From Dudresnaya verticillata (lineage: Eukaryota), in the NCBI GenBank assembly GCA_977862235.1, contig OZ374557.1:1550001-1614000 (forward strand): DNA of 64,000 bases, given 5' to 3'. Positions 13,315 through 55,262 of the stretch are shown here, piece by piece. The translations under genes were made by a program, and so were the position numbers. The notes under the pieces were generated by a model. The model saw only the letters and a program-made list of their open reading frames with translations, ran no database searches and was not told the DNA's origin. Numbering within the stretch: the stretch's first letter is position 1; every line of letters begins with the position of its first letter.

Positions 13315-13997
13315 TGTGGTGAAGTGAAAGTCACACCTGTAAAGTGTCAGACAATCCCAATAAGGAGTGATCTCACTATGGCACACTCACACGGCACCGG
13401 GGTGGTAGAGCTTAGTTCGTAGACCGAAGGGAGTACCTCGAGCGGCAACGCCTGTAAGTAGTAAAGGGAAGCAGGAGAAAAGGGGGACGGTACGGTGCCA
13501 GGGCAGCTACACCGGGACGGAGGTAAGAGGAATCGGTGCACGGGGCTGGCGAAGGGAAACCGTGAAGGAGTATGAGGGTAGGGCTTAGGGTAAGTCACTT
13601 TGCCCAGGGTTGCGTACCCGTTTACTGTATGACTCGCGTTGGCCACCTATTAATATACTGGGAGATACGCCCCGCGGTCCGGGCAGTGTGGGTCAGACCC
13701 CAATGGGTCTGGTCCACCAGGTGGGTCCGGCCGTACTGGTCCCGGTCACCGTTGCGGACATGCTCGGCATTCTCATTGGCCGGCTGACACTACGTACTGT
13801 ACAGCATCATTACAATTACCTAATTACAAATAAATAAACTACTTGGCTCCAATTGGTGGTGCGCACAGACTCCAGCGAGGCGTACAGTGCTGCTGTGTCG
13901 CTGCACTCCCGTTCGGTGTTTGGTGCCAGCTCACCGGTGCGCTGGTCGCGAGTCGGCTCAACCGTCGTCGGCACTCCACAACGGCCACTTCACCACA
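13315..13997 (-). repeat. Element A 3' LTR
   Basis: TGTGGTGAAGTG...CACTTCACCACA ends. Matches 35824-36498. Confidence 0.95.
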
Positions 13998-14004
13998 GAC
14001 CCCC

Positions 14005-14768
14005 TGTAGTATCTCTAAAGCACCACCGCATACGGCAGCCAAACCAGATCTCAAGAAGACCACAAAGACCTGACGGATTTCACCAAAAACTGGCCAGAAC
14101 GTAGAAGGGACCTGCGCGCCGGTAGGAATCGTGGTAGAGCGGGAGCGCGCAGACGAAGTCGTGACCAGAATCTGTGATGAGGACAGAAAATGGCCAAGTC
14201 GGGGGTTCAGTTGCTAACTTTACTCCCAACCTCTGGCGGGGTGGCTTCGTACCCTTTTCGGCTAAGCCGTGGTATGTGGCCAGCTAAGTAGTCCCAAAAT
14301 CGCCCATCTGAGCTAATCTAGAGCTGTTCTACAGTTAGTGGCCCAATTTACTCCTGTCGGCCATAATATCTACTTGTGTTCCGGCGTCGGGCCAATGTAA
14401 GGCCCTTGCGAGACTAAACCAAGTACTTTTGCGTTAATGGTTGGCCCTGCGAGTTAGATTTTCACTTGATTTTTCCACTGTCTTCGCTTTGATTCACCGT
14501 GCGGCCAAATCCAATTTCAATTTGTGTCTGGCCGCAAATCGGATCATGCGTGTACAACGGGCCACGTGGTGCGCTTCGGTGTCGTAGGTGGCCACGTGTG
14601 AGCCACGTGTACAATCGGTGGCCACGTTTCATTCTTGCGCGCGCTCGCTGCTGTCCGCGCGCCGACGTCACAACTTCATTGGCCCAGTGTCTTCGTTTGG
14701 TTGGGCCGATCGTACAGTTGGACCGTCGAGTTGCTTCCTTACGGTGGCCCCCTTGCTGTTGCACCACA
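14005..14768 (-). repeat. Element B 3' LTR
   Basis: TGTAGT...CACCACA ends. Matches 26441-27203. Contains clustered GCCACGT(G) G-box-like sites at ~14560-14630. Confidence 0.95.
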
Positions 14769-14980
14769 GAGACCCTTCGCAAGCGCGGACTCCTGGCCGC
14801 GTGGGTGTCATCTGGCCATATCAGCGCGCGTGATCCGCGCCGCTACCCCTCTCCCTGCACCCGGTCATCACCATCTTGTTCACACCGACCGTTTTCCCTT
14901 ACCGACACTTGCCAACAACATCGTGCGGACGTCCTTGCTTCGCTTTCCAACTTGCGCGCGCCTGGCCATCTCCTTTCCCC

Positions 14981-17900
14981 ATGGCAGGTGGTCCAGCGAA
15001 AACACGCCCGCGACACACAGTGTCGGCCAAGAAGAAGACCACGCGGCTGCATTCGTCATCCAGTTCGTCGTCCACACCGCCGTCGAGCGATGAAGAAGTT
15101 GGCGTGGCCAAAGTGAAGGCGATGCCGAAGAAGTCTGGCCAGAGTTCGAGGCCGCGCGCGATGAAGGCGCCCAGGGCGTCTTCTGTCCCAGCACCCAAGA
15201 CACCAAGTCGCGCATCTAACGATCCGCTGGCTGCTGTGAAGACCACCGCGGTGGAGGAGCCCATGAAGACTGGCCAGGAGAAGAGTGTCGCTGCGTCTGC
15301 AACTCCGGCCATAGTGCAAGCTACGCCCGACGTGGGCACCTACAAGTTGATGCAGGAGATTGCGGCCAGTCAAAAGAGGCACGAGCCTGAGGAGCAGCAA
15401 CTAGCCAGCCTCAAGAAGAAGCTTGTCGATACACAGAAGGCCAAGTTGGCGCGCAGCGTGACCATTGTCGCATCCTGCTCATCGGAGGAGGCAGCGGCGG
15501 CAATACGCCAACTTGGAGGGGCAATCCGAATGCATCTTCTGTCGTCGGCCCGTTTGCAAAAGAGACGCCGAAAGCTGGCCAGAAGGTAGCAGAAGCGCCT
15601 GAGAAAGGGTTGGTGCAGGCCGAAGTGAAGCGCCTTGAGGCGAAGAATTTGGTGCCGGTCGCAAGCACTACAGTGCCAACGGCCGTTAATCCTACTCCAT
15701 CGCCGTTAGCCACCGCTATTGAGAAGGCTGTGATTGCAATCTCACGTCCGTTGGTTACTCAAGCCACCACTGCGGCCGCGGAAGAAGTAACTGCGGCTCA
15801 ACCCGATTCCGACTCGGCCATGGTATTCGTGCCCGCTCGAGAAGAACCACTGGCCAGTAACGAAGAGTCGCTTGGAAAGGCTGAGAAGACTGGACCATAG
15901 CTAAAAGAAGGAGATAAGTCAGTGCAGAAGACTTCGGAAGCTTTGGCCAATATTCCCGTGCCGCGTAAGACATCGCATTCAGCTACGCCGAGTGCTTCAA
16001 GAAAGTCTACCCCGCGGCTGCGCTCTGTCCCTTCGCCATTCATGCCGACAGCAGCGAGCCGGGCGCGTCAACTGGCCAAGCTAAATATTGGGAAGGCAGC
16101 AGTGCAAGGTCCCCCTGCAAAGCAGCAGCGGTTGCCAAGCAAGGAAATCGGCCAGTCGTCTCGAGCAGACGTTATCGATTTTGATGCCTCTACACCTATT
16201 CCTCCGGCCAACCCTATGTCCGGTGGCGATCGGCGACAGTTTTTGGCTTTGCTTCGCGACGCCGATGATCTTAAAGCTGGCCCGTCTTCTTCTACGCCTT
16301 CTGCAGGCTTGCCGCCCAAGTCATCTGGCCTGAGTGAAGATCCTCGCGTGAAGGAAGTTATCCCGCGCGAAGAGACTTTGGATATCACCAAGGCTGGCCA
16401 GGAGATCCCAAGCTCAAGTGCTGGCCCTTCTGTTCCTACGCATCCGGACCGTGAGCCAGCTTCGCACACTCGTGCTGCTGTGTCTTTCCGTCCCGACCTC
16501 CCACCGGGCCTAGAAGATCAGGATAGCCCCGAGTTGGTTTTGGACGAACGTTTGCCTGGGACTTCTATCTGGCCAAAGTTACCTCGAGTGGATATACCTT
16601 ACACCGAGTGGTGGCCGATAGTGACAAGCTGGACATGATTCGCGTACGGGAAAGCCATTGCCCTCTCAACGAGTCGTGGCACCAATATCGCGAGTCGCAT
16701 GAAAATGGCCATCTCTTTGGATCCCTTCGGAGATCGAGTGCGACCGTGCTTTCTTGCTGTGCGCGCGGGATGTGATGTTCGTCCACGGAGCTTGTTTGAT
16801 GTTCAATGGAAATTCCAGTGTGTACCCTCATACTTCCACATGGTATTACGCCTTCCCTCACTCGTGGATGCTTGAGCGCTGGGAGCAGACGACCGTGCGA
16901 AACGCGAAAATGGCCAGTACAGACCTTCGTCGCATCATAGCGCCGGGAGATTGGTTGGCCCATCGCACGGGTGGTAGCTATGTCTGCCACGGCAACACTC
17001 GCGGCCAGGAAGGGTTTTGGCCCCCTGTCGAATACTTCCCCAGCGTTCCCGCTTTTCTGTGGAAGGAGTGGCTATCGAGAGGTGAAGCTTGCCTACTTAG
17101 CCCTCTGGCCTATTATTTTCTTGGCCAGTATCGTCGTCACGCGTTCGACCCCACTTGGTTTGAGTGCTTCCAGGAAACCGCTGTCGTTGAGTTACACGAA
17201 TGGCCAGCATCTTCTTTCGCTACGAAGCGCAGGCGTCGAAGAGGATGTGGTGGATGTCTTCCCAGGCCATTGCTCGACGAATTGAAGTTGTGAAAGACCT
17301 TACTTATGTCCCCGTCAGCCAGGAGCACAAGCATCAATTCAACCATGTGTATTGGCCAGATATTGTCTCGTTGTATGAGAAGTTGGCCGATACAGTGTTG
17401 CACCGTGACCATTTGTTTCAACGCAGAGCTGGCCACGATGAGAAGTATTGCGGCTTCGACTGGAACAAGCATGTGACTTTTCGGCATGGTAGTAGCTTTG
17501 GAGTTGAAGTGGCCAATAACGCTTCCATCGTGCGGGCCAGCATCCTGCATCCTCATCCGCATGTGGTGGCCGAACGTTCCGTGCGCGGCCATGTTAACCA
17601 AATGTCTTTGGCCAACATCTTGCGGCAGCTGAACCAGAACATTGGCCGTCTCAGCGACATGAAGCGTCGCCAGACTGTCGAGCTCAACCGCCTTCGTCAT
17701 CATGTTGATGACGTTGATCATGCGTTGATCATGTTGATGACGTTGAAGGAGTTATCCGGCGGGGCGAAGAGCGATTGGCCAATGTTAGGAGTCAAAAGGA
17801 TCATATCGAGGCTGAGCTGCGAAACGCGAAGGAGTCACTGGCCAGATGCAATGAACAAGGTCTGGAGTGGAAGAGGCAGCGCGACCACTGGTGCGATGAA

Positions 17901-18400
17901 GCTCATAACCAACAGGCCTTACTTGACTTGGAGCGCAACCGTGGATTTCATCAGCTGGCCAGTTTGCGTGCAGCTTATGCACCGCCGGTCTTTGGCCAGA
18001 TGCCTCAGTTTCCTCTGCCCTCCCTGCCAACGCCTGCGCCGCCTCCAACCGTGCCACAATATCCTGGGGTCTCAGTGGCACCGGCCACAACCTCCACGTC
18101 GTCTCATGCTGGTGACATCTCTGGCCATCCGCGCGCGCCGTCTCGACCGGCCGATTATCAGCCAGAGCCAATCCGTCCGGTGGTGTTGGCTCCGCCTACT
18201 CCTGTGGCCAATGTTGTTCAACCTGGCCTTGTTCCTGTTAGTTTGGCTCTGCCGATCACTTTGCCCTTCGTGACGCCGCCAACCGTTCCTGCGACGGCCC
18301 ACGTGCTCCTACGAAAGCGCCTCGCGCACCTTCACAGTCAAGGAGCAGAGAGCCCAATTCTTCGGGTTCTCCTCGCTCACCAAGTCCCTATGGCCGTTAG
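14981..18400 (+). pseudogene. Antisense extra ORF of element B (~1100 codons, unknown function, frameshifted)
   Basis: Chain of abutting + strand ORFs (14876-15589, 15610-15900, 15922-16638, 16754-17293, 17200-18273, 17775-18593). They join into a basic/disordered N-terminus, a W/H/Y-rich globular region, a coiled coil and a Pro-rich C-terminus. End is approximate. Confidence 0.8.
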
Positions 18401-19222
18401 TTTTCAAGGTATTGGATTAGTAGTTGGCCAGTTCGTCTTGTTATCTTCTGCTGTCCAATGCGTTGTTGTTAGTCTTGTGATTTCTTGTGTCTTGTGTTTG
18501 TGTTATCAAAAGTTGGTGGCCAAGTTCGTGCTTCTAAGATTGGACAGCCCCCCTTGTGTTTGGGGGATATTTAGTCTGTCCGGCCATTCTTGAGTTAAAA
18601 TGCACTGGTTGCCTTCAAACATTTTGTGTGTTATCGTGGCCAGTTACCAGTCAAGTGGGGCCGTATGGCCTCTGTTCGTCCGGGTCAGTAGGTCTTGCTT
18701 CTGGCCAATGCTCATGAGCACAGATTCTTCAAGTCACCAAAGGAGGAGTAACGGCCAGCTATTGTCTTTGTCTCATCGACTTCAAGCACCCCATCTGGCC
18801 ATGTTTTTTCTCTGGCCAATTTCCTTCTTGTTGTCAGTAGGGGGTTATCGTTGTCACCCCTGTCTCCTCACTCTGCGCAAGTCCCCGCTTCGGCGCACGA
18901 CGCGTGGGAATTAGAGTTACCTGGAGGAGGCAGCAAAAGATGAGACAGTTTCTACCATCTGTTTACACCCGCTGAATTTCGGCGTACACCGGGAGATTTG
19001 CTGGCCGCAATTTTTCTCACACAATGATTGGCCAGCTTACATTATTCTGGGTTAACCCTAAACACCGCCGTCGGGTTTTTGGTGAAGAGGTTCCAGCCGG
19101 GGTATTTTGTCACTCAGCATCTCCTTCCTTCGTCCACGACCGCCCCGCATCTCCGTCTTCACACGTTTTTGGCCAGACTCCGACTCCTCTCGCTTGACTC
19201 CCTGGCCATGTAGAGGTTGACC

Positions 19223-26421: not shown

Positions 26422-26439
26422 TTCTAGGTCGGGAGACCA
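26422..26439 (-). promoter_or_regulatory. Primer-binding site of B, inferred tRNA-Tyr; same PBS type in A (35800-35817), C (38168-38185), E (52467-52484) and F (54831-54848)
   Basis: TGGTCTCCCGACCTAGAA is complementary to a tRNA ending ...CTAGG-TCGGGAG-A-CCA. C1:G72 with A73 is the eukaryotic tRNA-Tyr signature, and yeast tRNA-Tyr ends CGGGAGACCA. The LTR-PBS spacer is 1 nt in B/E/F and 5-6 nt in A/C. Confidence 0.85.
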
Positions 26440-26440
26440 G

Positions 26441-27203
26441 TGTAGTATCTCTAAAGCACCACCGCGTACGGCAGCCAAACGAGACCCCAAGAATACCACA
26501 AAGACCTGACGGATTTCACCACAAACTGGCCAGAACGTAGAAGGGACCTGCGCGCCGGTAGCAAGCGTGGCAAAGCGGGAGCGCGCAGACGAAGTCGTGG
26601 CCAGAAGCTGTGATGAGGACAGAAAATGGCCAAGTCGGGGGTTCAGTTGCTAACTTTACTCCCAACCTCTGGCGGGACGGCTTCGTACCCTTTTCGGCTA
26701 AGCCGTGGTATGTGGCCCGCTAAGTAGTCCCAAAATCGCCCATCTGAGCTAATCTAGAGCTGTTCTACAGTTAGTGGCCGAGTTTACTCCTGTCGGCCAT
26801 AATATCTACTTGTGTTCCGGCGTCGGGCCATTGTAAGGCCCTTGCGAGACTAAACCAAGTACTTGTGCGTTAATGGTTGGCCCTGCGAATTAGATTTCAC
26901 TTGATTTTTCCACTGTCTTCGCTTTGATTCACCGTGCGGCCAAATCCAATTTCAATTTGTGTCTGGCCGCAAATCGGATCATGCGTGTACAGCGGGCCAA
27001 GTGGTGCGCTTCGGTGTCGTAGGTGGCCACGTGTGAGCCACGTGTACAATCGGTGGCCACGTTTCATACTTGCGCGCGCTCACCGCCGTCCGCGCGCCGA
27101 CGTCACGACTTCATTGGCCAGGCGTCTTCGTTTGGTTGGGCCGATCGTACAGTTGGCCCGTCGAGTTGCTTCCTTTCGGTGGCCCCCTTGCCGTTGCACC
27201 ACA
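26441..27203 (-). repeat. Element B 5' LTR
   Basis: Matches 14005-14768 and is adjacent to the PBS. Confidence 0.95.
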
Positions 27204-28696
27204 CCCCCCTCCTTAAATGGCGACACGTCCTCGTGCGCCCGCTTCGGTTTTCGTCCACACCGTATCGGTTTCGTTCCATTGACACCATAACGGCTTCGTA
27301 ACCGGCACCTGTGCTCGGGTGTGGTCAAGGTCCCCGTTTTGGTACAATCTGCCCCGCGCGTATTCCCAAAGCCAAAGTCCATCACACCAAAATGGAGTGT
27401 GGATCCACCGGTGGTTCGCCGTGTCAATGACCGAAGGACTCCAATCGGATTCGCAAATAATCCCTTGCGGAGTGCGCTGTAGTGCCCGTGAACAGTATGA
27501 GGAAACCATGCCGAAATTTGAACTTGGTCTCCCGCTCCACTTCACTTCCATCCAGTGTCGCGGTGTGGACACAACACACAACCCATAATGGCGTTTGAGC
27601 GAAACATATTCTACAGACGCCCGGGGTCCTTTGGCGGAGCCAGTACCGAAACATACTCCAATACGGTGTGCCATGCAGTGGCTGTTGACAACATGGGGGA
27701 AGCTATGCCCGATTTTTCGGTAATTGCTCACATATGGCGCGAAACGGTGTCACAACATCCCAATGACATCGTGTGCGAAGCCTAAAGCTTGTTCCTTTCC
27801 GACTCTTGGACGCGACTCTTCTTACACGGGCGGCACCGTTTCGGCGGAATATATTAATGTCAATATATCAACATTAATATATTAATGTTAAGTAAGCTGT
27901 TCTCCACATAAATATATTAATGTTAAGAAAAGACATAAAATTAATCTCAACATTAATATATTAACCCGAGCTCCGGTGGTGTGGAAATCCGAAAAAACGG
28001 TGCTTGAAGCGACGGTGGTAGACCGGAATCGGACTCCGGAAGGGTACGCGCACAGTCCCCGAGACGCGGAAACTTCCGGGTATCGTCTCCCTCGATACCA
28101 GAACGGTGTATGCGGCCGTGGTAACTGGCCGGAGCTATTTGCCAGGGCTCTACACTCCAAAAAAGCGGCGGCGCGCCCGATGCGGCAAGTCGGAACGTGA
28201 GAGTACATGCACAAGTGCACCTGTTTTGGAGCCAGCGTGCGCAAACGACCGCAAGCCTCCACTCCCTGTCCGTGTTTGCAGCGCAATGCCCCAAATTGCA
28301 CAAGCAGAGTGGGAACTGGGCTGGTATCAGTTTGGAACCAAGGACGAGCATACCAATATGGAGTGAAACCCCTTGGGCAAGGGCTCGGTGACCGTGAGTC
28401 CAGGGGTCATGCCGAATTTTACGGCATGCAACACCATCGGGGCGGAAATGGCGGGCAAAGCGCACGGCGATATGACGGTGTCGCGTAGCAGTTGTCTCGA
28501 CACGCTTCCCACTCCAATACCGGTATTTGTGACACGATAGTACCCCACATTACCGAAACGGTGCACACGACCTTGGCGCCCCGCGGGAAATGGTCTCCAG
28601 GGTCATTCCACTGCGAACACCACTCAGGGCACGTTCCGTATGCCTTATTAGGGACGGACAACACCGTAAAGGAGCGGACCGCTATCTCAATTCCGG

Positions 28697-35659: not shown

Positions 35660-35823
35660 GTGTTCTCCTATTCTTAGGTTACCAAAACGGAGTCAACGAG
35701 TGTTTTGCCTTGTCCTGCCTTTACACCAATACGGAGTTGTCACAAAGCTCACCTCCTACCGAAGCGGAGTCCCACGGAAATTCTTCTACCTTGACGGTCT
35801 TCTAGGTTGGGAGACCAAAACGA

Positions 35824-36498
35824 TGTGGTGAAGTGAAAGGCACACCTGTAAGGAGAGCTGATCAGGAAATCCCAATAAGGAGTGATCTCACACGGCACCG
35901 GGGTGGTAGAGCTTAGTTCGTAGACCGAAGGGAGTACCTCGAGCGGCAACGCCTGTAAGGAGTAAAGGGACGCAACAGACAAGGGGGACGGTACAGTGCC
36001 AGGGCAGCTACACCGGGACGGAGGTAGGAGGAATCGGTGCACGGGGCTGGCGAGGGGAAACCGTGAAGGAGTATGAGGGTAAGGCTTAGGGTAGGTCACT
36101 TTGCCCAGGGTTGCGTACCCGTTTACTGTAGGACTCGCGGTGGCCACCCATTAATATACTGGGAGATAGGCCCCGCGGTCCGGTCCGTGTGGGCCAGACC
36201 CCAATGGGTCTGGTCCACCAGGTGGGTCCGGCCGTACTGGTCCCGGTCACCGTTGCGGACATGCTCGGCATTCTCGTTGGCCGGCTGACACTACGTACTG
36301 TACAGCATGATTACAATTACCTAATTACAAATAAATCAACTACTTGGCTCCTATTGGTGGTGCGCGCAGACTCCAGCAAGGCGTACAGTGCTACTGTGGC
36401 GCTGCACTCCCGTTCGGTGTTTGGCGCCAGCTCACCGGTGCGCCGGTCGCGAGTCGGCTCAACCGTCGTCGGCACTCCACAACGGCCACTTCACTACA
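35824..36498 (-). repeat. Element A 5' LTR
   Basis: Matches 13315-13997. PBS at 35800-35817. Confidence 0.95.
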
Positions 36499-36899
36499 CC
36501 GTCACCTCAGTGCACAGGTGCCGTCTCGGCCGTCGACGGCTCGTGAGCGTTGCGGCTCACGAGTTTGCATCAGCCGATTTTTATGGTGAAGTGAGATTAG
36601 GCATCCAAGACGGTGGAAATGCATATAGTGTGGTCTCTACCGTTGTGAGACGTGTGAACGTGTATCCGTGTTGGTATTGTGCGCATTGCTGTACGCTGGT
36701 ACGCATTTCTGTACAGCAGTGTAGCGCACCAACCATACCGGAGTATTTGTAGTATTTATTCTTTATTTTTAGTGAGTATCTGTACAGTTTGAAGAGTAGC
36801 GCGCCAGCCAATGAGAATGCTGCGCATGTCCGTGTCGGAGATTGGGACCAGCAGGGCCGATTCCACCATGGGTCCAGACCACTAGGGTCTGGCCCACAC

Positions 36900-37799
36900 T
36901 GTGGTGCAAGGGGGGTGAGCCCCTTTTTCGCTGAAAGCGGAGCAACAAATATGTCGACCGATGGAGAAACCGCCACCGGCGCTCACCACCGCCGTTGGCG
37001 CGCGAACAAGTCATCGACGGCTCACTGGGGCGCGCGCGCACGTTGCGCGCCGCGCGCCATGCGGGCACTGTACGGTGATGGGCCGACATGGCGCCCCGGG
37101 GCACTGTAACACGGATCCAGATGGGATCCGGATCCGGTATCCAGATTGGCTATCTGGATCGCCTGAGCTGTAAGGTATGCGCCTATAAGGCTGCGAGTGT
37201 TCGCATTGCTGGCCCGGATCCGGATGGGGATCGGGGTCGAACAAGTATCAGATTAGATCAAGGGCGCACGCTGTACAGTACACGCGCGCGCACAGCTGTA
37301 AGGCACACGCGTCCACGTGTGTGTAAGCGCCCACGCAATGCGTTGCGCGGCAACCTGTCAGGCGCGCGGCTGCATGCGATGGGTGATCTGTCAGACGCGC
37401 CTCGGGACGACACGTGTCCCAAGTTCCCGCGCTACGCACACGCACCGCCGCCACCGCACCGCCGTACTATACTTAGGTAAGCCGTCCCAGACGTAGCAGT
37501 AAACGCCCGGACAAGCCGGCCTTGGTCCAGACTTCCCCGTTCCGCACGCGCGTACCCTATCGCTGCCTACGGCCTAAGCGTCTACCTCCCGTGCTTCCAC
37601 GTCGCTCACCGTCCTTGACGTGTTTCCTTTTTGTTCCCTTTTTCCTTCCTTTCCGCCTCGGGCGTCTACAGTCCGCCCAAGACGTGTCAACTGCTCTACC
37701 ACAAGCCGCCCAAGACGAGGCTACTCACGCCACTGGCGACGCTACCCACCGAGCCCCGAACTGCTCGGCGGTGTTTCATCTTCAGACGTTGGCACCACA
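36900..37799 (+). mobile_element. Solo Gypsy LTR inserted in the 5' LTR of C
   Basis: TGTGGTGC / GCACCACA ends and TSD CACAC. Removing it restores the sequence seen (reverse complement) in LTR 43754-44429. Confidence 0.92.
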
Positions 37800-38310
37800 C
37801 ACACGGACCGGACCGCGCAGTGCCACCTTGACTCGTATATCAGGGCGGCACCACAGCGACTCCTAAGGTAAACGGGTAAGCAACCCTTGAGCCTCAATTC
37901 CACTGTAGCTCTTTCCTTTACGGTTTTCCCCGCGCCGAGCCCGTTGCGGTCTACCACCACCACCGTTACGGAGTCCGTCCCGGCACTTGTACCACCCCGT
38001 TGTCTGTTGCTTCCCAACGTCCGTTTCGGTTAGCCGCTCGCTGTTCTCCCGTCTCGGTGCGACCTGCTCTACCACCCCATGGAGGTAGCGTCGATCTCGT
38101 CCCGTGTAGGAAAGTTAGGCCAGCTGTCCGTTACGGAGTTCATGGGTTTTCACCACACCACATCTTTTGGTCTCCCGATCTAGAACACCGTAACGGTTGG
38201 AAGAAACAGCCGTCGAAATCCGCTACGGTAGGAAGTCGGCTGTACCGACAACCCGTTACGGAATATTGGATATACAAGCAAGAACAACCGTTGTGTTCCG
38301 TTAAGATACC

Positions 38311-43753: not shown

Positions 43754-45670
43754 TGTGGTGTAGTGAAAACCCACGAACTCCGTAACGAACAGCTGGCCTA
43801 ACTTTCCTACACGGGACGAAACCGACACTACCTCCACGGGGTGATAGAGCAGTTCGCACCGAGACGGGAGAACAGTGAGCGGCTAACCGAAACGGATATT
43901 GGGAAGCAACAGACAAGGGGGTGGTACAAGTGCCGGGACGGACTCCGTAACGGTGGTGGTGGTAGACCGCAACGGGCCCGGCGCGGGGAAAACCGTAAAG
44001 GAAAGAGCTACAATGGGATTGAGGCTGAAGGGTTGCTTGCCCGTTTACCTTAGGAGCCGCTGCGGTGCCGTCCTAATATACAAGTCAGGGTGGCACCGAG
44101 CGGTCCGGTCCGTGTGGGCCAGACCCTAAAGACCCGGACCCATGGTGGAATCGGCCCTGCTGGTCCCAATCTCCGACACGGACATGCGCAGCATTCTCAT
44201 TGCCTGGCGCGCTACTCTACACACTGTACAGATACTCACTAAAAATAAAGAATAAATACTACAAATACTCCGGTATGGTTGGTGCGCTATACTGCTGTAC
44301 AGAAATGCGTACCAGCGTACAGCAATACGCACAATACCGAGACGGATACACGTTCACACGTCTCACAACGGTAGAGACCACACTATATGTATTTCCACCG
44401 TCTTGGATGCCGAATCTCACTTCAGCACAGACCCCCCTCCTTAAATGGTGACACGTCCTCGTGCGCCCAAGTTAACGGAGTTACTGCTAGGGTCCGCTGA
44501 ACCGTCAGCGGGTTCGAGCAGCTTTTCCAGGTCTCGCGTCAACTGCTCTACTGCCGTCACGGTTTGCTTCGATGCGTTGCGAAACTCCACGCACCTCCGA
44601 TACCATGACGACCGTCACGTAGAATAACCGAGACGCGCTTGACGCGAGTGGCGTGCTCATCCCCAAGGGATGCCGGCCCAGACCGGTCGTCGTGCTCTAG
44701 CCCATAAACGATCCGCAACGGGTTCCTCCCGTATGTCAGGGGAGCAGACACTAGATCTTGTCCCACTTTCACCGTAACGGGGTTGCAATCCAGGCACCTC
44801 GCAGACAGCCGCATTTGCAAACATTCGACATGGGGGTCCTACCACACCTAAAGGAGCAAACACCTTTGGATAGTGTTGCTCTCACCGTAGCGGAATAAGG
44901 TTCCCAACTGTCTGCTCGAACGCGCAGTCGATTACGCTCCCATATCCACAATGGACAATTAGTATTCCGATCGGACGACGGTACCTCACACCAGCTATCC
45001 CCTGACGGAAGGTGTTCCGACTTGGGTGGCGAGAAGCTGGAGGGCTAGGTACGCCACAAACCGGCGCAGGCGGCGTGTTTCAGGAATCCGTAGCGGTTAC
45101 GGGCGAATACCTTCACCCCTGCCTTTATTAGACACACTACGAACCCCTCCCTCTTGAGATGAACCCAACCCGCGACGGTGATAATATATTGTTATCGATG
45201 TAATAATATATTGAACATTATATAAAATATTAATATTAACATCAGTATTAACATATACCCCGGGACTCTGAGAAGAATAATAGGACCGAGGAATTTTCCT
45301 GTACCGTCGCGGAAGAGGCCGTTCTTGGCCCAAACGTGCTGGGCGGCCACCTATGGCAAGAAAAAGGCGTGCCGCTCCCGGAAAGGTCGACGACGAACAC
45401 CGTTGCGGTGGCTGACGGGGTGTTCAGAGCGATTTCCGTGACGGAAGAGTGCCGCGTAAGCGGTGGAACCTTGGCAGAGTACGCCGGCTGCGATATTGCG
45501 GAAAAACGAGAGTACCGTTTTGGGAAATGGGTCCCGTCATCAGCAGGGTACGCGACCCTCGCTGGCAAAATCCGTGACGTAGCGGTATGCCCCATGGGGA
45601 AACTGCAGTTTGAACAACAACGACATCCCGTAACTGTAGCAGGCGTCGACAAGACGCAGTTCCCGTAACG
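43754..45670 (-). mobile_element. 3' fragment D of a C-family Gypsy: 3' LTR (43754-44429), PPT (44430-44446) and 3' extra region
   Basis: The LTR is a reverse-complement match to the C LTR. PPT ATTTAAGGAGGGGGGTC is the same as in A. Contains CCGNTACGG motifs and an AT-rich island like A. Right boundary is approximate. Confidence 0.85.
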
Positions 45671-48600
45671 GGGTCGCCACATCTCGGGGAGTATCCTCCC
45701 GCAGCGGCGGGGGACAGTAGAAGGCGCGGTCCGCTGCGATGCGTTCGACCAAGCCGCCTCTGTCGATAAACAGCGTGCGCTTGTCACTAAGCAGCACGCG
45801 GTAGGGCCCTATCGCTGGGCTCTGGAGCTTCTTGGGTTTCTTAACCCCGTCGCTCGCGTAGGTGAAGACTTAGTCTCCCGATCGAATGCGGGAGTTGACT
45901 TTTCTGACATGCTTGTCAAAGTCTTTCTTGTAACGCCGCTGCGTTTTGTCGAGAGCGCTCGATGCGCTTGCGAAGGCGGCGTCGAGCCGCTTGAGAACCA
46001 CGCGCACGTCCTCACTAGGTTTCGGTCTGGCCGCTGCCTTATGAAACTTAGTGAACTCCGGCGGCGGCCGGGACAGCACGAGGCTGAAGGGTGTCGTCCG
46101 CGTCGTGCGATGGATATGGCAGTTGTAGGAATACATCAGCGCCGCTGCGTATCGATCCCAGTCGTCGTGGTGATCGTTGATGTAATTCCTCAACATAGCC
46201 ATGACGGTCCGGTTGTAGCGCTCAACCTGACCGTTCCCCTGCGGGTGGTAGGCGGACGTGAACACGTTGTTCAGTCCGAGGTAGCGGCACACTTCCTGAA
46301 AGAACTTTGAGGTGAATTGCTTCCCGTTGTCCGACAACATAGACCTCGGTAGTCCATAGTGGAAGACCCACCTCTCACAGAATACTACTGCGACGTGGTA
46401 CGCTGTGATGGTGCGCAGCGGCGCTACTTGAGTCAGCTTCGTGAATCGATCCGTCATGACGAGCAGGAATCGCTTTCCTGACTTCGTCTTGGGCAGCGGC
46501 CCTAGGATATCGATCGCGAGCGACTCGAGCGGCCTCATGGCCGGGAACAACTTCAACCGATAAAGGGACCTCCGCAAGCGTATGCGGTTCCTGGCCCAGT
46601 GCCGACAGTTCCGAACGGTCATGGCGATGTCTGTTGACATGTGTGGCCAGTAGTAACTCTCGCGGAGCGTGTAGAACATCCTGTTCTGGCCAGGATGGCC
46701 AGCCAGGAGGGAGTGGTGCGCGAGCGTGAGAAGCCGCGGCTGAGCGCTTCGGGCACCACTATTTGCTCCAACGAGGAGATGACGGGGTAACGCCGGCACA
46801 AGAGCCTGTCCTCGTCCTCAAAGAAGTGGCTATCCCGTCGACGGGACTGCCGTGCCAACACCGTTTGGCAAAAGGAATCGCGCCGCTGCGAATCAACCAA
46901 TTCTTTGACGGTTATTGGTGAAGGGAGCTTCACCGGTTCGACCCGGGTGAGGTCCGTCGGCTCTTGGCTCGCGTCGATGCGGCCGAGGTCGAAGAGGTCG
47001 ACGTCGTCGCAGTCATCCCAGGCTTCGTCGTCGGCAAGCCCCGGCGGCTCGTCGCTGTCCGATGGCTCCTTGGCTTCGCTGCCATTGCCACCCACTGCAG
47101 CCGGTCGATCCGGCGCCTTCCGCGTCGACGCGTTGGATTGGGACCGCGTGGTCAGCAAGACCGGCGGTGCCTTGGGTTCGGTACTCGAGGCACCCTCCTT
47201 CTGGCGGTCGACCGCCGGGGGGTCATAGGTAGGGACGTCGTCGTCAACCTCCTCTTGCTGCCGTCGAGGCCTCACCAGGCGGGACAGCGCGTCCGGCACC
47301 TGTTGTACCCTACCCGGGCGGTACTCGATCTGGAAGTCGAATTCCGCTAGTCGCAACCGCCAGCGGGTGAGGCGACCGGACGAATCGGTCAAGGATATGA
47401 GCCAGCGCAAGGCATCATGGTCGGTTCGTACCGTGAACCGGGTCCCTTCGATGTAGGGACGCATGGTTGTGATCGACCACACCACTGCGAAGCACTCGCG
47501 CTCCGTGGCCGAGTAGTTTCGCTCCGCTGAGCTTAGTGAGTAAGACCAGTACCCAACGGGGTGTAACTGGCCGTCCTCTTGCTCCTGGAGCAGGGCGCAT
47601 CCGAGCTGGTACGCCGATGCGTCCGTGTCGAGGACGTACGGATTCCTGTCGCGAGGGAGCCGTAGGATAGGAGGCGATAAGAGTGTCGCTCGCAGCGTCT
47701 CGAATGCCTCTAGCGCCGCTGCGCTTGGATTATCGAAATTCACATCCGCATCCTTGCGGGTCATATCCGTCAATGGACGAGCGATCTTCGCGAAGTTCCT
47801 GACGAAGCGGCGGTAAACGTTACACGCCCCGAGGAACGACCTCACTTTCGTTAGGGACTTCGGGAGCTGCGCATGGCGGAACGCGTCGATGCTTGTCTTC
47901 GTCATGCGCAGTTTCCCCGGCTCGATCACGTGACCGAGGTAGTCCACGCGGGACTGGGAGAAGTGGCAATTCTTCAGCTTCAGGGACATGCCGCCCTTTC
48001 GAAGCAGAGTCAGCACGCGGTCTAGGTGACCGACGTGCTCCGCGATCGACCGCGAGAATATGATCACATCATCGAGATAGATCAAACAACACTACCATCT
48101 AACTCCGCTGCGTATGATGTCCAGTGCACGCTGGAAAGTCGCAGGGGTATTCTTCAGTCCGAAGGGTATCCTTAGGTAGCGCAACGTCCCTAGGAACGTC
48201 TTGAACGTGGTCTTATCCCTGTCAGCCGCTGCGACAGGGATTTGCCAGTACACCGCGTTACAATCCAGCGTGGAGAAAATGGCAGCGTCGCCAAGACTAT
48301 CGATACAGTCATCCATGCGTGGGAGTGGGTACGCATCACTCAGGATTTTGGTGTTAAGACGTCGACAGTCCACACAAAACCTGAGTGTGCCATCCTTCTT
48401 GGGCTCCAGAACGACTGGCGATGCCCACTCCGACGTGGCGGGTTCGATTACCCCTGCACGCAGCATGGTCTCGACCTCGTTCTGTACGAGCTTCCGCATA
48501 GCGGGGCCCTGTCGATAGGGCATTGAGCGAATCGGCCGCTTGCCGGGTTCCACGTCGCTGTGGTGTTGCGTAGCGGCAATCGTGCCTAGCCTGCCGTCCC

Positions 48601-49990
48601 ACATGGACTGATGCTTCCGAAGCATGGCGAGGACTTCTTCGCGGGTGACCTTGTCTTCGATAGAAGAAAGGTCCACCTGCGACTCCCAGTCCTCGGTGGA
48701 CTCTCCGTTCTCCGCAGCTGCGTTTGCTGCTCCTTGGAGCTTTGTGGGCTCAGGGCCCCTTGCCATCGACGGCGTGACTTGGCGTTCATTGCTCCCCTTA
48801 CCCCTGGGCCGCTGCCCTTTGAGGGGAAGGGTGGTTATAGTCATCACCCTCCCGAACTCTTCCGCGACGTCGCGGTCCGGGGTTATCAGGACGACTGGGT
48901 TGCGGACCGCATAACCAACCACGGTACCGTTCGGTAGTGTCCGGGCTGTGTCCGTCCAGTTGCCCAAGATAACCCCGAGGGGTCGCCCCGGCTCGATGTC
49001 GTGCACCTCATTGGTCAGTCTCACGCCGTGGCGGAACTGCAACGAGGGTTTGGGATCCGTGTGGATCAACCCACTGGCCCCCGACGTCACAGAGACGAGC
49101 CTCTGCGAGTAGTCTGGGGCAACCACCTGCCTAGCGAGGCGTATGGTGTGGGTATCGTGATCCCAGTCGAGGAGCTCCCGCTGGTGCTTCTTCGACAAAC
49201 CCTTAGATGGGTTCTTCGGCTACGTTGCCGGACCGGTTTCCCTCGCTAGGGTTCCTGCAGCTGAGGATTGGCACCGAGACTCCTTTCCTCAGCGTCAGCC
49301 TTCTCAAATCGACGTCTATTCCGCGCACGTGCGCGTTGATAAACTGCGTGCCTATCAGTACGTCGACCGCGAGCGTGTCGGCGACGATGAAAGACACGCG
49401 GAACGTCGTGTTCCCCAACCTCATCGAGAGGTGGACGACGCCGGACAGCCTCAGCGGAGTCTTGTCGGTGCCTGCCAGGCATGGCGCGGAGTCGATCTCT
49501 GACGCGTTTTACTCCCAGCCTGTGGGCAGGGCACCTCGAGCGATGAGGTTGTACCCGGAGCCGGTGTCCACCGCGATGGTGTGTGTATCATAACCCGCGG
49601 GTCCGCACCGAGGGACCCGGACACTCGGTAAATCTCGGAGGACAGGAGGGACACGTACACATCGGGGGTAGTGGCCGGCTCTGCGTCGATGCATGGGGCC
49701 CCGGTACCCTCGCATCGAGCGTCGGGTACCGCCTGTCCCGCTATCGGGGAGCTGCACCCTTTCCGCCTGGCCTGCCGTCTGTGTCGACGCCGCGGCGGCC
49801 AGGGTGGTTTGGTACGCGTCGCCCGCGACGTCCCGTCGACCGGGGCGTCGTTCGTGTCCTTCGAGGCGCCGCTGCGCTCGACGTGGGGGCTCGCTGTCCC
49901 CAACGCCGTCGAAGGTGAAAGGGACGGTGGGTCTGGTGTTGGACAAAACGGTGCACGCGACCGCACGAGCGGCGCCGCCTTTATTCTTTT
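45670..49990 (-). pseudogene. pol: Element E pol
   Basis: VDTGSGYN, YLDD, TDAS, IDILGP, SDNG, ERYNR and GPY motifs. Disrupted. Confidence 0.92.
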
Positions 49991-52418
49991 TCCGGATCGA
50001 CCCGGTCAGAATTATCCTCGGAATCCGAACTTTAGTGCTCGATTCCGATTGGGTGTTTCGTAGCCCCTGAGGCGCCTCGCGTCGATCGCGGACGCGTGTC
50101 AAAAAGGAGAGGGGAATCGCTTCCCTGCCCGCTGGCTGTCTCTCCTTTGTGCTGCACATCAAGCGCTTGCGGAAGCCACTCGTCGGCAGTGAAACCGGTG
50201 TACTCCTGCACTGTCATAACTGCTCGGAGCAGTTCGCGGCGCGGGTCGGCCCTCGGAGGCATCGATGCCTGAGGTTGACGGCCAGCGGGCTCGTCGAAGC
50301 CGACCCGCTTATCGCGCAGCAGGAACCGCGGTGCATCGCCTTGGCGGTACTCGCGGCGTGGGTCTCGACGATCCCCGCGGTACCCCTGCAGCTCTCCGTG
50401 GTACCTTGGGGCGCCCATGCGCTGCGGTGGACCTCTCGCGTCGAAGCGTCGGCCCCCACCCCGCGGTGCGTCGTAGCGCCGCGCGGGGTTACTTGTCCTT
50501 GCGCCCGATGGCGCGCTCGTCGTCGCTCGTCGAGGAGCTGTTGGAGCATATTGCGCGAATGCGGCTGCGTTTCCATTCAATGGTTGCAGTTCGCATACGC
50601 GCAGTACGTCTGCTCTTCCTTCATGAGGTACGGGCACGAATACATGATGTGCCCGACCTCGCGGCAGAACCAGCAGATGTACCATCCCTGTCGATCAGAT
50701 GACTGCTCGTGCCATCGCCTCCTGCGTTGGAGTGAGCGGTGGTATGCGCTTGGGTAGGACCGCGTCGATGCGTCCTGTAATGTCCAGGGTCTCGACGGCC
50801 TCGGTCGATCCGGCTGTCGATAGCGCGGGTGCGACCATCACGGGTTCGAACCTGTGGGCGTCGGGGTCCACCAGCATTGTGCTGTCGATAGCAACGTCCC
50901 CGCTGGGATAGCTTGGTCGGCCCTCGATGAGCAGTGTACGGCCGCTTGCCGAGCTGCCACCTGACCTGCCGCGCCCCGAGGTGTTCGTAGGCTGCGCTTC
51001 CTTTACCGAACGGGCGCGGTAGGTTGTGCCCTCGCTATGGGCAATCCGACGAACCGTACTAAAATTGGTCTGTTCGACCATAGGCAGCTGCCTTACCTTC
51101 TCTGCCACTGCGGGTCTTGTCGTGGGCAACAGGCCCCGAAGGAACTGATGCGTGATGCTTCAAGTTCTCATCGGAGTGCAGGCCAGCGTAGGCGTCCGAA
51201 TACCCTTCGAGGCGAGTGGCGAACTCAAGCTCGGACTCGGCGTCCTTCTGCTTGGCGGTGGTCAGCCGATCATGGTCGTCTGCAATGACGTCGTCCGTGA
51301 CGAACCTCTCGATGAGGGTATTGACCACCGAGGCCCAACAGGGTGGGTGCCGCGCTGCGTTGTGCGCACCCCAGAGAACAGGTGACTCGAGTACACCTGC
51401 AACGCGGTTCCATCGAGGAACCAGAACACCACACGCGCCGCTGCGCCTTCGGATAGTCCAACGCCATTGAATGCTTGGCGTAGCTGTCGAAGCACACCAA
51501 GCAGGCGAATCGGCTCCTTGCCGTCGAACCGGTCGAGCCGGGGCATCAGGGCCTTCATGCGGCTGACAATCTTCGCAGTGTTGCCACTACACACCTGCTG
51601 TTGATTGTCCCGCTGATCTACGTCATCAAGACGGTACGAGCGGTAGTCGATCGCCTTAGCGAACTCTGGCACCAACGTGGTCAAAGGCTCGATGCCTGCC
51701 ATGAGTGGGCCCCAATGCCAATAGGCAGAGACGGGCCCTCGTGCTGTCAGGGGGTCGGTTCCCCCTTTGTGTTTTGCCCGTCGAGGGCTTGTTGGAGCAA
51801 CCTGGGGTCGACCCCGTAGAAGGGATTGAGGGTCCCCACTCGGATGGTGCGACCCCGCCACACTCCTCGGTGGAGATGGTGGTGGTGAAGGAAAGCGATG
51901 CCGAGCTCGTTGCTCGGCAAGTATGGCAGCGGCCAATTCTTGAACTGCACCCGCTGGTGACTGCGGTCGCGGAGGAGAGCGCTGCGCCGACGACGGGCCT
52001 GTAGCCCGCTGGCGTTGCCGCGTCGACGCGCGCTCTATCAACTCAACGCGGCGGCGTAGCTCATCGAGGAGCCCCTGTGACCGGGTTATTCCGTCCTCGA
52101 TGGACGCCAAAGGACCGCGTCGAAGCGTGTCCAGGTCTTGCTGGCTGTCGGCCTTCGCCGCAGCTATCGAAGCTGTAAGGTAGTCGTACACCTCGGCTAG
52201 CGAGTCCATGGTCTCCTCATACAGTAGCTGGAGGTCGGCCACCGAGACCAGACTGCCGGCGAGGGCCTTTTGCAGCGCGGCCCTCGCTCGGGCCTCACAT
52301 CGTGTAGAGGAGTACCTGAGACGCCGATGGTACTCAGTATTGAGGTGCGACGCGTCGCGTCCTCAACGTTTCCGGCAGCGGCCGATGTGGCAGCGGGCGG
52401 GTCAGGAGGACTCGACAT
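49981..52418 (-). pseudogene. gag: Element E gag
   Basis: FDGKEPIRLLGVL capsid-like region and a CWFCREVGHIMYSC knuckle near 50630-50675. Frameshifted. Confidence 0.85.
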
Positions 52419-52485
52419 CCTTTACTTTGATCGTGTCGATGCGAGAAGTACTTGGTTCTCGACGACTTCTAGGTCGGGATACCAG

Positions 52486-53258
52486 TGTAGTATAGACGTC
52501 GGGTCGATCCGACGTCTGATACTTGCTAGTCCGAAGCCGCCACACGGACCCGTCGATGGGTAGCTGTTGGGGTTGGTAGAGCGGTGTCGGCCTCGTGCGC
52601 CCCGCAGGTGCAGATCGACGGCGTCCATGCCGGAGCGCGCACGGGGCGTACCGTACGCGGGTAGGCAACGGCCGGATCCCAGCATCCCTGTCGAAGGGCG
52701 GCACGAAGCCGACGGAAAGGAAAAGGAAAGGGGAAAAGCCTAGCGAGGCAAGGGAAAAAGGGAAACCGCCCGCTGGCGTAAGGCAAAGGGATCGAACCCG
52801 AAAAGGCTGGGGCAAGCTTCAGCGCGAGCTGTTGCTTGCCCGGTTTACTGAGACATCGATGACCGACGGTCTTAAATACCCTACACTATGTGCACTACGA
52901 CTACTTCTACAGTAGGTGCGCCCCACAACACCAACGCTGGAGGTGTGCGAGCGCACGCCCATACACGTGTCGACACGTCCGGGTAACGGTTGCCCGTGGG
53001 GGCGCGCGGGGCGTAACGGGCAGCGGCCCTCTCAACGGCTCGACGCCGGAGAGCGTCACAGGGGCGCGCCGTGTGCGGCACGGCGCGCGGCCGCTGCCGG
53101 CAGCAATGCGGTCGACCGCTACTAAATCAACGAAAAAACTAAGGGCACGCTGCCCAACGACGACTCGCCAGCGAGCGTCATCGTGTGCACCATTACAGTG
53201 CAGGGCTGCCAGCATACCTTACAGCCGCCGCTGATAGTGTGCTGACAGCTATACTACA
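52486..53258 (-). repeat. Element E 5' LTR
   Basis: 10-bp terminal inverted repeats, adjacent PBS, homologous to solo LTR 6985-7820. Confidence 0.92.
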
Positions 53259-53469
53259 AGCGTCTACCTATCCGTGTTTCCACGTTCATAACCGTTACTA
53301 ACGTGTTTTCCTTTGGGTTTCCTTGCCCCTTTTCTCTCTCGCCTTGGGTGTTTACAGTCCTCCCTAGGCGTGTTCAATCTGCTCTACCAAGTTCGACACC
53401 AGCGGCTACCCACCGCGCTCCCGAACGGCCCGGAGGTGTTTTCTGTCTCTAGACGACGTTTGAACGACA
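53259..53469 (+). repeat. 3' part of an LTR related to solo LTR 36900-37799
   Basis: Aligns by eye with ~37578-37799 and ends in ...GACA with no PBS following. Confidence 0.75.
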
Positions 53470-53693
53470 CTAATGGCTGCCCGACAAGTGTGGGCACAAC
53501 AAGTACTAAATCCGTGAGTACGGAGTTAAGAAATTGGCCAACAACTGGCTATTGAGGGCCTGAACAAGCATCCCGTGGCCTGATGTATTCGTGCGTACGG
53601 AACAAGCTCATTGGCTCACCAGAAAAACACCACACCCTTGGTGTATTGGTCCGCGGCCCCCGTATATGGCTTGATAATTGATTCAGAGAATGA

Positions 53694-53865
53694 TGTGGTA
53701 TAGTAAAAACCCACGAACTTCCGTAACGGACAGTTGGACTGAATTTCATTCACGGGACGAGAGAGATACTACCTCCACGGGATGGTAGAGCGCTTCAAAC
53801 CGAGACGGGAGAACAGAGAGTGGCTAACTAAAACGGACATTGGGAAGCAACAGGAAAGAGGGTGG
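53694..53865 (-). repeat. U5-end fragment of a C-family-like LTR
   Basis: Similar to 43754-~43925. Confidence 0.8.
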
Positions 53866-54206
53866 TTTGGTGACTTGAGCATTGGGGATTCCCGAAGACG
53901 ATTGAGCCGATTCGCGACCAGCGTATCGGTGAGATCGGGCGAAAACCCGAAGCGGAGTGCAGCGTGACAGTAGCACTGTGTGCCTTGGCGGAACGTGCGG
54001 AGCCCAGCAATGGGAACCAACAAGTTATTTCATTTTTAATTGGGTAACTGTAATGCTTCTTTACATGTACATGTACTGCAGTAAGTAGTAATGCCGGCCA
54101 ATAAGAATGCAGAGCATTTCCGCAACGGGGGCTGGGACCAGCAGGGCCAGATCCACTGAGTGGACCAGACCCATTTGGATCTGGCCCACAAGGACCGGGC
54201 CGCGGG
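53866..54206 (+). repeat. U3 part of an A-family-like LTR
   Basis: Similar to the reverse complement of ~13670-13997. Similarity stops where LTR F begins. Confidence 0.78.
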
Positions 54207-55262
54207 TGTGGAATAATGAGCGCCCGAGCGCTGTAAGCACACACGTGTACAGACGACGCCTGTAAGGCGTGAGGTGCCCGAGGGTGCGATGGTTGAGATG
54301 GCCAAGTCCCATTGGTTGATTAATCATGGTCACCCATATTTTTGGCATTGCGCGCCAGACAGCAGCGCGCCTGTACCTCGTAGTGGTACTACCACTCATT
54401 CCTATCATTGGATTGTAATCCACCATTAGTGTACAGTATTAGATAACTGTCAGTATTATTACTCTAACTTAGAGTGGGTAGCATTTCCGGCTTTCCCCCG
54501 AATTTATTGGGCCCCTGAGTAGCAGGGGCCCCGCACTAAACCGGCAGCGGTTTGTACTTTGGGCTGTACCGATTTTCTGGTCTTCCTACGGTGCCACCGT
54601 TGTTCCCTTGCCTTGGGCGTTTACAAGCCCTATCGTGTACGACGATTGCTCTACGCTGTAGGGTTCGCCTTCCCTTTTCTTTGCTCCTGGGTATTACACC
54701 CATTACAAGTCTCTACCACACCCCTTTTCCCTTTTCCTTTGAGCTACCGCCCACCGTGAGTGTTTGTCCCCAGGACAGCTGTCGCACCGTTTTATCGCCG
54801 ACTACCTGGCCGAGGGCCTTTCTACTACAGTGGTCTCCCGACCTAGAAAAAGTTCTCAGGGTCGGACCCTTTTTCTACCTTGCCATCGACAGGCCGAATC
54901 GAGAAATCAAGCCAGGACGGAGTGTCCGTTGATTTTCAAGGTTCCAACCTCTCGAAGGGCAAAACCCTATTCATCTTACTGTCGACGGTTTCTACGCTTC
55001 ACGTTAAGCTCCAGAGTAGCGTCAAATCTGTGAGCAAGCACAAGTTCGTTTTACGGTTTTATCCGTTTTTAGAAGTACCCTCTCACGGCGGAGTGACGCC
55101 CGTAGTGAGACTACCTCAACAGTTTTTCCGTGCATCCTGAGAAAACACGAGTATAATACGGTTCCTACTGTCGAGGAGCCTGGGAAGAAGTCCCCGCTAC
55201 CACATCGGCTGAACCGAGAAGAACTTCATCAGACCGACAATACAGGTCCTGTTGAAGTCAAG

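Follow-up and report, generated by a model that had tools for sequence, protein, structure and literature searches.

A conserved box in the long terminal repeats of red-algal Gypsy elements as a possible additional pairing site for a tRNA-Tyr primer

Results

Box A in the Gypsy elements of the window

The subject of this work is a short sequence, called here box A, which recurs in the long terminal repeats (LTRs) of Gypsy retrotransposons in a 64,000-nucleotide (nt) stretch of DNA from Dudresnaya verticillata (contig OZ374557.1, positions 1,550,001 to 1,614,000, assembly GCA_977862235.1), referred to below as the window. The window is a nest of LTR retrotransposons, in which five Gypsy pol regions, one Copia and one DIRS-like element were recognized. 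The Gypsy elements are named B to F, and the solo or partial LTRs G, H, J, S1 and S2. The order of reverse transcriptase (RT), RNase H and integrase, by which Ty3/Gypsy elements are distinguished, is present in B, C, E and F; pol of D is cut after RNase H, and C carries a chromodomain after the integrase. The remaining structure is also that of Ty3/Gypsy elements, with LTRs of the TG...CA type, a primer-binding site (PBS) following 5′ LTRs in five cases, and LTR pairs which are 92–96% alike. Purine tracts precede positions 27203 and 44429, and a CACAC target-site duplication flanks S1. Among the RT matches bearing a eukaryote name, the nearest was Agarophyton chilense (58% and 50% identity). 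By these matches, and by the presence of related elements together with a mitochondrion of red-algal type in the second source described below, the host is likely to be a florideophyte red alga, and an oomycete origin, considered at first, was dropped.

In its exact form box A is the 9-mer GCTCTACCA. On the minus strand it was found at 13403–13411 in the 3′ LTR of C (13315–13997), at 35904–35912 in the 5′ LTR of the same element (35824–36498), at 14132–14140 in the 3′ LTR of B (14005–14768), at 52574–52582 in the 5′ LTR of E (52486–53258), where it is represented by CCGCTCTACCAAC, at 7071–7079 in LTR G, whose end lies at 6985, and at 53783–53791 in the D-like LTR fragment J. Plus-strand copies are located at 38066–38074 in the 5′ LTR of D (36584–38162), where the box is predicted to fall within a local hairpin, at 37693–37701 in the solo LTR S1 (36900–37799), by which the D LTR is split, and at 53381–53389 in the LTR fragment S2. 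Variants occur in the 5′ LTR of F (54207–54829, plus strand; TCTCTACCA at 54710–54718) and in the LTR remnant H (minus strand; ACTCTACCA at 6887–6895). Two further minus-strand copies are degenerate, namely GCTTTGCCA at 26568–26576 in the 5′ LTR of B (26441–27203), which is the sole copy with G opposite nt 20 of the tRNA discussed below, and GCTCTATCA at 43842–43850 in a D-family LTR (43754–44429). All 12 sites quoted in an earlier note on this DNA are present at their coordinates, both copies that it had called degenerate could be located, and the copy in H is additional to its list. What it had said about placement was borne out as well: the box follows the element sense strand, and its 3′ end lies 80–127 nt before the LTR end in the window (74–127 nt overall).

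The exact 9-mer was observed nine times, against 0.42 ± 0.70 expected, and nine or more copies occurred in none of 100 shuffles; every copy is within a Gypsy LTR, on the sense strand. Among the 13 LTR ends of the window, the exact form is present in nine, the 8-mer CTCTACCA in 11, and a degenerate form in two. Since several of these ends were located by reading around the box sites, 13 of 13 is not an independent count. In a motif-blind count of 8-mers in the last 200 nt, CTCTACCA ranked first and was present in all seven LTR groups. Six of them are BLAST-defined groups into which the 13 window ends fall because of LTR likeness across elements, and the seventh comes from the metagenome-assembled genomes (MAGs) described below. 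No 8-mer exceeded four of the seven groups in 2000 dinucleotide shuffles, and the chance of box A per LTR was 0.5–1.3%. The description of these LTRs as otherwise dissimilar, given in the earlier note, is correct in so far as six groups exist, but not for C, D and J (68–93% alike), G and E (78%), or the two LTRs bearing TACAGTC (77%). The RT identity among elements of the clade, in the window and the second source together, is 55–88% (the RT tree was poorly resolved, and identities alone were used from it), so that box A outlasts the alignability of the LTRs. We conclude that box A is a real and deeply conserved LTR element of a Gypsy clade, which is primed by tRNA-Tyr as judged from its PBS.

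The PBS and its tRNA

The PBS of these elements, TGGTCTCCCGACCTAGAA, is 18 nt long, has no more than one mismatch in the five window copies and is exact in six MAG copies. In the window it is located at 26422–26439 in B (minus strand, exact), 35800–35817 in C (minus strand), 38168–38185 in D (plus strand), 52467–52484 in E (minus strand) and 54831–54848 in F (plus strand, exact); the copies of C, D and E have one mismatch each. When metagenomes were scanned for a T loop and, after it, the PBS complement, a single locus, L112, was obtained. According to Rfam it is a tRNA (53.7 bits); its anticodon is GTA, position 37 is followed by an intron of 24 nt, and a run of T forms the terminator. All 15 gene-encoded nt at its 3′ end, together with CCA, are complementary to the PBS without mismatch, as seen in B. 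Thus, the assignment of the PBS to tRNA-Tyr, made previously without a gene at hand, is supported by an intron-containing nuclear tRNA-Tyr(GTA) gene, and the window elements are probably primed by a tRNA-Tyr. A Maf-type gene neighbours L112.

Other searches for the primer gene gave negative results. ARAGORN found no tRNA in the window, no tRNA with a PBS-complementary 3′ end was found in the prokaryote genome collection, and no PBS-matching tRNA-Tyr was present among 47 tRNAs from 19 regions of the MAG G001 (G002 left out). In the viral collection, none of 40 matches to the 14-nt PBS complement was a tRNA, and the best 80 of 104 T-arm matches do not continue as the PBS needs; the same collection contained one PBS match, not at an LTR, and no RT relative.

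LTRs from a second source

Further LTRs were sought by scanning a genome collection for the PBS adjoining an LTR end. Seven loci were obtained, comprising six true junctions in two contaminated MAGs and one archaeal match. The latter (L048) is not an LTR and was dropped as a chance match. The second-source LTRs are labelled m057 to m111 after their loci. Of the six true junctions, four have more than 110 nt upstream of the PBS, and all four carry CTCTACCA followed by GCTACC; in another, L043, only 55 nt are available. BLAST revealed no similarity of the PBS-picked LTRs to those of the window beyond the LTR end and the PBS, apart from a weak match of one locus to an internal part of B. The LTR m097 was found by means of the box pattern itself and is therefore not independent support. 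Gypsy RT was detected in 2 of 201 and 2 of 301 further genomes, with one new contig of the clade, L233, which starts in the PBS tail and contains no LTR, and none of seven looser PBS-like matches was an LTR junction.

The second-source LTRs have another conserved word in common, which is GGGTGGGGAC-like and lies about 210–250 nt before the LTR end in L042, L044, L046, L047 and L097. The genomes G001 (C4, C394 and at least 13 Gypsy contigs), G002 (C270) and G074 (C409) are bacterial MAGs with eukaryotic contamination, which includes a mitochondrion of red-algal type, intact Gypsy elements and a cluster of nuclear tRNAs of animal type. In G001, where members of this clade are present, one mitochondrial contig has a long tRNA-Ile intron, a florideophyte trait.

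LTRs with other primers

If the box were unrelated to the primer, it might be equally common in LTRs with other PBS types, a possibility raised in the earlier note. It is absent, as is the second box described below, from all three such LTRs, namely those of the window Copia, L103 and L104; both boxes are also absent from the DIRS-like repeats and from L106, where the PBS was not placed. L103 and L104 are distant Gypsy elements, with RT 36–45% identical to the clade, and have a common PBS, TGGTAGCATCGC, which is likely to be for an initiator tRNA-Met. The possibility that another primer goes with another box was considered by comparing three LTRs with an animal-type initiator tRNA, and one of 12 windows reached a z of −2.98.

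Complementarity of the boxes to tRNA-Tyr

The LTR columns conserved in 15–18 of 18 LTRs are those opposite nt 17–25 of the tRNA, and conservation drops on both sides. The earlier note had considered box A complementary to the D arm of tRNA-Tyr, and this was supported in part: the animal-type tRNA-Tyr L067 does read TTGGTAGAGCGGAGGACTGTAG, but its 3′ end misfits the PBS, and L112, which matches the PBS, reads TGGCAGAGCATTTGACTGTAG. On the test which the earlier note had set for its own refutation, L112 thus counts against it by half, with 8 of 9 core nt matching box A but with GGAG absent; the host of L112 may, however, differ from that of the window. Because GGAG is absent, the CC before box A and the TCC after TACAGTC are left unpaired with L112; both extensions do pair with L067. 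A tRNA-Tyr with U20, which misfits the PBS, matches the core in 9 of 9 positions. With L112, the calculated energy of the box A duplex is −8 to −16 kcal/mol, whilst the U20 tRNA gives −13 to −26 kcal/mol, and opening of nt 4–26 of the PBS-bound L112 tRNA was computed to cost 5.7 kcal/mol. In 7 of 9 folds, the predicted structure leaves box A more open than the remaining U5 (the LTR part following the terminal repeat, R).

A second box, box B (GCTACC), which had been missed previously, is present in 12 of 18 LTRs and lies opposite nt 6–11 of the tRNA. In all 12 it is located 3′ of box A, with a spacer of 1–39 nt, and this order fits antiparallel pairing. In the window it was found on the minus strand at 6870–6875 in H (within GAGCTACC, the complement of nt 6–13), 7060–7065 in G, 26557–26562 in the 5′ LTR of B (within GCTACCGG, the complement of nt 4–11) and 52559–52564 in the 5′ LTR of E, and on the plus strand at 37741–37746 in S1 (spacer 39 nt), 53405–53410 in S2 and 54743–54748 in the 5′ LTR of F (within TGAGCTACCG, the complement of nt 5–14). 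The complementarity extends to 7–10 pairs in G, E, the 5′ LTR of B, H, F, m098, m111 and m097. The 3′ LTR of C has no box B, and in the 3′ LTR of B it is degenerate (CCTACC). When the tRNA was shuffled, a partner for box A with at most one mismatch arose in 0.5% of trials, and partners for both boxes at a frequency of 1e-5.

A third word, TCTACAGTC, is found in the S family only, at 37665–37673 (plus strand) in S1, and is the complement of nt 30–38 of spliced L112, that is, of the anticodon loop. S2, a member of S1's family, keeps it with one G-U pair as TTTACAGTC (53351–53359, plus strand). As these two LTRs are 77% alike, the "anticodon" box belongs to one family and not to two; hence, of the anticodon-arm complementarity proposed earlier, 9 nt in one family remain. 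For a word present in one of seven families, a rough estimate of chance occurrence among the seven groups is a few percent.

Position of the box within the LTR

A TATA-like word followed 15–40 nt on by a CAGTAAA-like word (where both were found) we take, from consensus sequences, to mark the region of transcription start. The CAGTAAA-like word is present in 11 of 14 whole LTRs, 197–441 nt upstream of the box; in G it lies at 7334–7340 (minus strand), about 28 nt after the TATA-like word, and in C at 36122–36128 (minus strand), 30 nt after it. With the presumed start upstream of the box, the latter would be located in R or U5. In the same 11 LTRs, the distance from the box to the LTR end is 93 ± 18 nt, as compared with 299 ± 102 nt from the box to CAGTAAA.

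Other features of the window

A DIRS/Ngaro-like retroelement occupies 1338–5595 (plus strand), with RT and with 197-bp direct repeats 97% alike; its open reading frame at 2852–5341 contains a C-terminal HSLRIG motif, presumably of the tyrosine-recombinase type. The Copia element (7930–13229, minus strand) is young, with LTRs 99.5% alike and LTR ends TG...AA, and its PBS is complementary over 13 nt to the anticodon arm of initiator tRNA-Met, as in half-tRNA priming. Element B sits inside the polypurine tract of C (13998–14004 and 27204–27213), with a G-run target duplication. Element E (43754–53258, minus strand) is chimeric or rearranged: the end of its body is formed by a purine tract of C/D type and an LTR of the D family, with which its own 5′ LTR does not match. 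At 53694–54206, two C/D-like LTR halves in opposite orientation are joined back to back near 53865. Palindromes occur downstream of the boxes in H (GGACAGCTGTCC, about 6830) and F (GACAGCTGTC, about 54775), and are candidate dimerisation sites; other LTR ends have different palindromes of 8–10 nt or none.

Discussion

Pairing of the boxes with the primer

The features described above are, in our opinion, best explained by an additional primer-pairing site, placed like the primer activation signal (PAS) of human immunodeficiency virus type 1 (HIV-1) but aimed at the D arm of the tRNA. On the sequence data we give this interpretation slightly better than even chances. The last 18 nt of the tRNA, complementary to the PBS, would anneal to it and, as follows from tRNA structure, annealing should free the 5′ acceptor strand and loosen the D arm. 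Box A would then likely pair with nt 17–25 and box B with nt 6–11, the variable spacer being looped out, and in one family the third box would reach the anticodon loop. Since the boxes, downstream of the presumed start, would be in the template which the reverse transcriptase must copy, such a contact would serve to choose the primer or to hold it in place, and would control the passage from initiation to elongation, a role also proposed for the HIV-1 PAS. If the boxes were in R instead of U5, the contact would bridge two RNA ends for the first strand transfer. A bolder version, which we put forward only tentatively and consider rather doubtful, is that a tRNA-Tyr-primed red-algal Gypsy clade opens up the entire 5′ half of its primer along ordered LTR boxes for the anticodon loop, the D arm and the 5′ acceptor strand, upstream of the 18-nt PBS, gating initiation or joining the RNA ends. 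The multipartite primer-binding system suggested in the earlier note thus keeps the probable tRNA-Tyr primer and the position of box A opposite nt 17–25, but has to accommodate the mismatch of L112 and a likeness to Ty1 that is loose.

Several observations weigh against pairing of the boxes with the primer. L112, the sole gene matching the PBS, is a metagenome locus and may not be that of the window's host. Its position 20 is C, and A stands opposite in 17 of 18 boxes. Its D-arm window gave a mean z of −0.88, with 2 of 15 values below −2 (the lowest mean of 32 windows, −1.67, was that of nt 5–14), and its 5′ 28 nt ranked 11th of 48 tRNAs for pairing to LTR ends. TGGTAGAGC is present in 8 of 47 unrelated tRNAs, which means that box A has no specificity for Tyr. 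Six of the 18 LTRs (those of C, D and J and the 3′ LTR of B) are without box B; CTACC is common to both boxes, and hence the joint frequency of 1e-5 overstates their independence. As L112 lacks GGAGG, what remains of the anticodon-arm box is 9 nt, in a single family. Compensatory changes linking box and tRNA were not observed. The MAG LTRs are mutually related and should be counted as about one new group, and in one PBS-picked LTR, L045, the box was not found in its 101 nt. The RT of L045 is closest to that of B (75%) among the window elements, and as the box of B ends 127 nt out, that of L045 may be out of range. This leaves three options: the hosts of these LTRs have a tRNA-Tyr with U20, a mismatch is tolerated in the contact, or box A serves something other than the primer.

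The last of these options leads to other explanations. A signal for protein binding or RNA processing, such as Gag or nucleocapsid packaging, a downstream promoter element or 3′-end formation, might act through the repeated CTACC, the likeness to tRNA being incidental. A repeated protein-binding word would look similar to boxes sharing CTACC, and this explanation would suit the third GCTACC found upstream of box A in two second-source LTRs, the A kept opposite C20, and the base after the box, for which A would be predicted from the tRNA but which is C in most LTRs (12 of 18). We nevertheless find it rather unlikely, as a partner with at most one mismatch is so rare in shuffled tRNAs, the spacer is so variable, and the position of the box tracks the LTR end and the PBS, not the promoter words. 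It could also be that the box pairs with the D arm of another tRNA or with 5′ tRNA fragments, as a site for a co-packaged tRNA or a small-RNA target, and not with the PBS-bound primer. This would account for the mismatch at position 20 and for the occurrence of TGGTAGAGC in unrelated tRNAs; moreover, ten tRNAs outscore L112, and the best of them holds both partner words. However, GGTAGC, the partner of box B, is at the 5′ end of only 1 of 47 tRNAs, yet is present in L112, the box is absent from the LTRs with other PBS types, and a silencing target would be expected to decay rather than persist across families; such pairing thus seems distinctly improbable.

One could also imagine that an ancestral LTR captured a tRNA 5′ half in antisense, which was kept as an antisense RNA polymerase III A box, much as Cassandra terminal-repeat retrotransposons in miniature carry 5S RNA. 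The boxes are indeed colinear with the tRNA 5′ half, and the spacer in G and in the 5′ LTR of B is 5 nt, as in tRNA. An A box needs fixed spacing, though, which a spacer of 1–39 nt does not provide, an antisense B-box-like word occurs (by consensus words) in only 4 of 14 LTRs and at unrelated positions, and ARAGORN recognizes no tRNA in the window, which makes a relic of this kind very unlikely. Pairing of the box with the RNA of the element itself, either in a U5-leader stem across the PBS or at a cyclisation site like CYC5/CYC3 of Ty1, might be suggested by two exact 8-nt complements in the body of C and by the predicted local hairpins which include the box in D and m057. It was rejected for lack of a conserved partner, and we regard its probability as very low: no 8-nt complement is present in 8 of 9 elements, including D, the relative of C (for m057, only 161 nt are available), and the 380 nt after the PBS pair with the box no better than shuffles do in all nine (z −1.0 to +1.2). 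Chance or mere shared ancestry, to which the likeness of some LTRs (68–93%) could point, has a negligible probability and was refuted by the shuffle count, the PBS-picked LTRs and the motif-blind count; the box is common to seven groups without mutual BLAST alignment, against a null maximum of four, and recurs in an independent source.

Comparison with known systems

Contacts between a primer and its template beyond the PBS have been described (PMC5371799, PMC3592414, PMC1635307, PMC13191261). They are known from a few single models, namely HIV-1, avian sarcoma-leukosis virus (ASLV), Ty1, Ty3 and Drosophila gypsy, and some are disputed; box 2.1 of Ty1 was seen in vitro, not in particles (PMC3592414). 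In the REXdb survey of plant LTR lineages, as in the clade described here, the PBS type is typical of the lineage; the most frequent primers given there are Met, Arg, Lys, Asp and Asn, and in its main text neither "Rhodophyta" nor "red alga" occurs, the lone "Tyr" being a residue (PMC6317226). A survey of conserved LTR motifs names, in the text available, terminal repeats, TATA, AATAAA and a GT-rich stretch, red algae not being among the genomes modelled (PMC3601003). We found no report of this PBS or box in red algae in the mostly open-access literature, and repeat libraries or supplements of genome papers may hold one.

The HIV-1 PAS and the U5-TΨC site of ASLV, as presented in PMC13191261, have in common with the boxes a full 18-nt PBS and a short upstream site complementary to another arm of the primer. 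A PAS is required for reverse transcription to start efficiently and belongs to the part of the transcribed leader that precedes the PBS; the upstream location was observed here, and the transcribed one would follow from the presumed start site. The two retroviral sites face the TΨC arm (PMC13191261), whereas the boxes would be directed at the D arm and the 5′ acceptor strand, and no signal of TΨC-arm complementarity was found in windows over nt 45–64 (mean z −0.35 to +0.46). The multipartite PBS of Ty1, with boxes 0, 1 and 2.1, likewise has short boxes which extend primer pairing beyond the PBS (PMC3592414). Ty1 is, however, a Copia-type element whose PBS, for initiator tRNA-Met, has 10 nt, and whose boxes are located downstream (PMC3592414), while the elements described here are Gypsy, with an 18-nt PBS for tRNA-Tyr and boxes upstream, inside the LTR. 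The analogy with Ty1 boxes and the HIV PAS drawn in the earlier note therefore stands for the PAS-like placement, but with Ty1 the likeness is loose.

Ty3, with its bipartite PBS, is a Gypsy element in which the D arm of the primer contacts LTR sequence; there the second site belongs to U3, at the 3′ end of the RNA, and some 4800 nt separate it from the PBS (PMC5371799). The boxes would be downstream of the start, in R or U5, and the full-length PBS follows them at a distance of about 90 nt. A short PBS of about 10 nt, characteristic of Ty1 and Ty3, is not found at any of the 5 window and 6 second-source junctions, all of which have the full 18 nt, and the boxes are not downstream of the PBS or in the 3′ U3 but 74–127 nt before the LTR end. 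Drosophila gypsy is also a Gypsy element with a second primer-complementary site; this site of 11 nt, close to the 3′ end of the RNA, is directed at the anticodon and TΨC stems, and cDNA synthesis does not require it, indicating that a second site can bind the primer without being essential (PMC1635307).

The contact proposed here would differ from those studied in single models in being kept across families with RTs down to 55% identical and LTRs that cannot be aligned, from at least two sources, and it thus offers a comparative test which single models lack. If the pairing is true, box and tRNA should change together across red-algal genomes, at position 20 first. On the bolder version given above, the boxes would represent a conserved equivalent of the retroviral PAS for the D arm, which could be read in many families and tested by covariation with the host tRNA. 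The PBS together with the box may in addition serve as simple annotation markers of this Gypsy clade. Provided that the pairing holds, the boxes resemble the known extra primer contacts, and they fall outside the PAS and the Ty1/Ty3 types by the arm they face or by their position.

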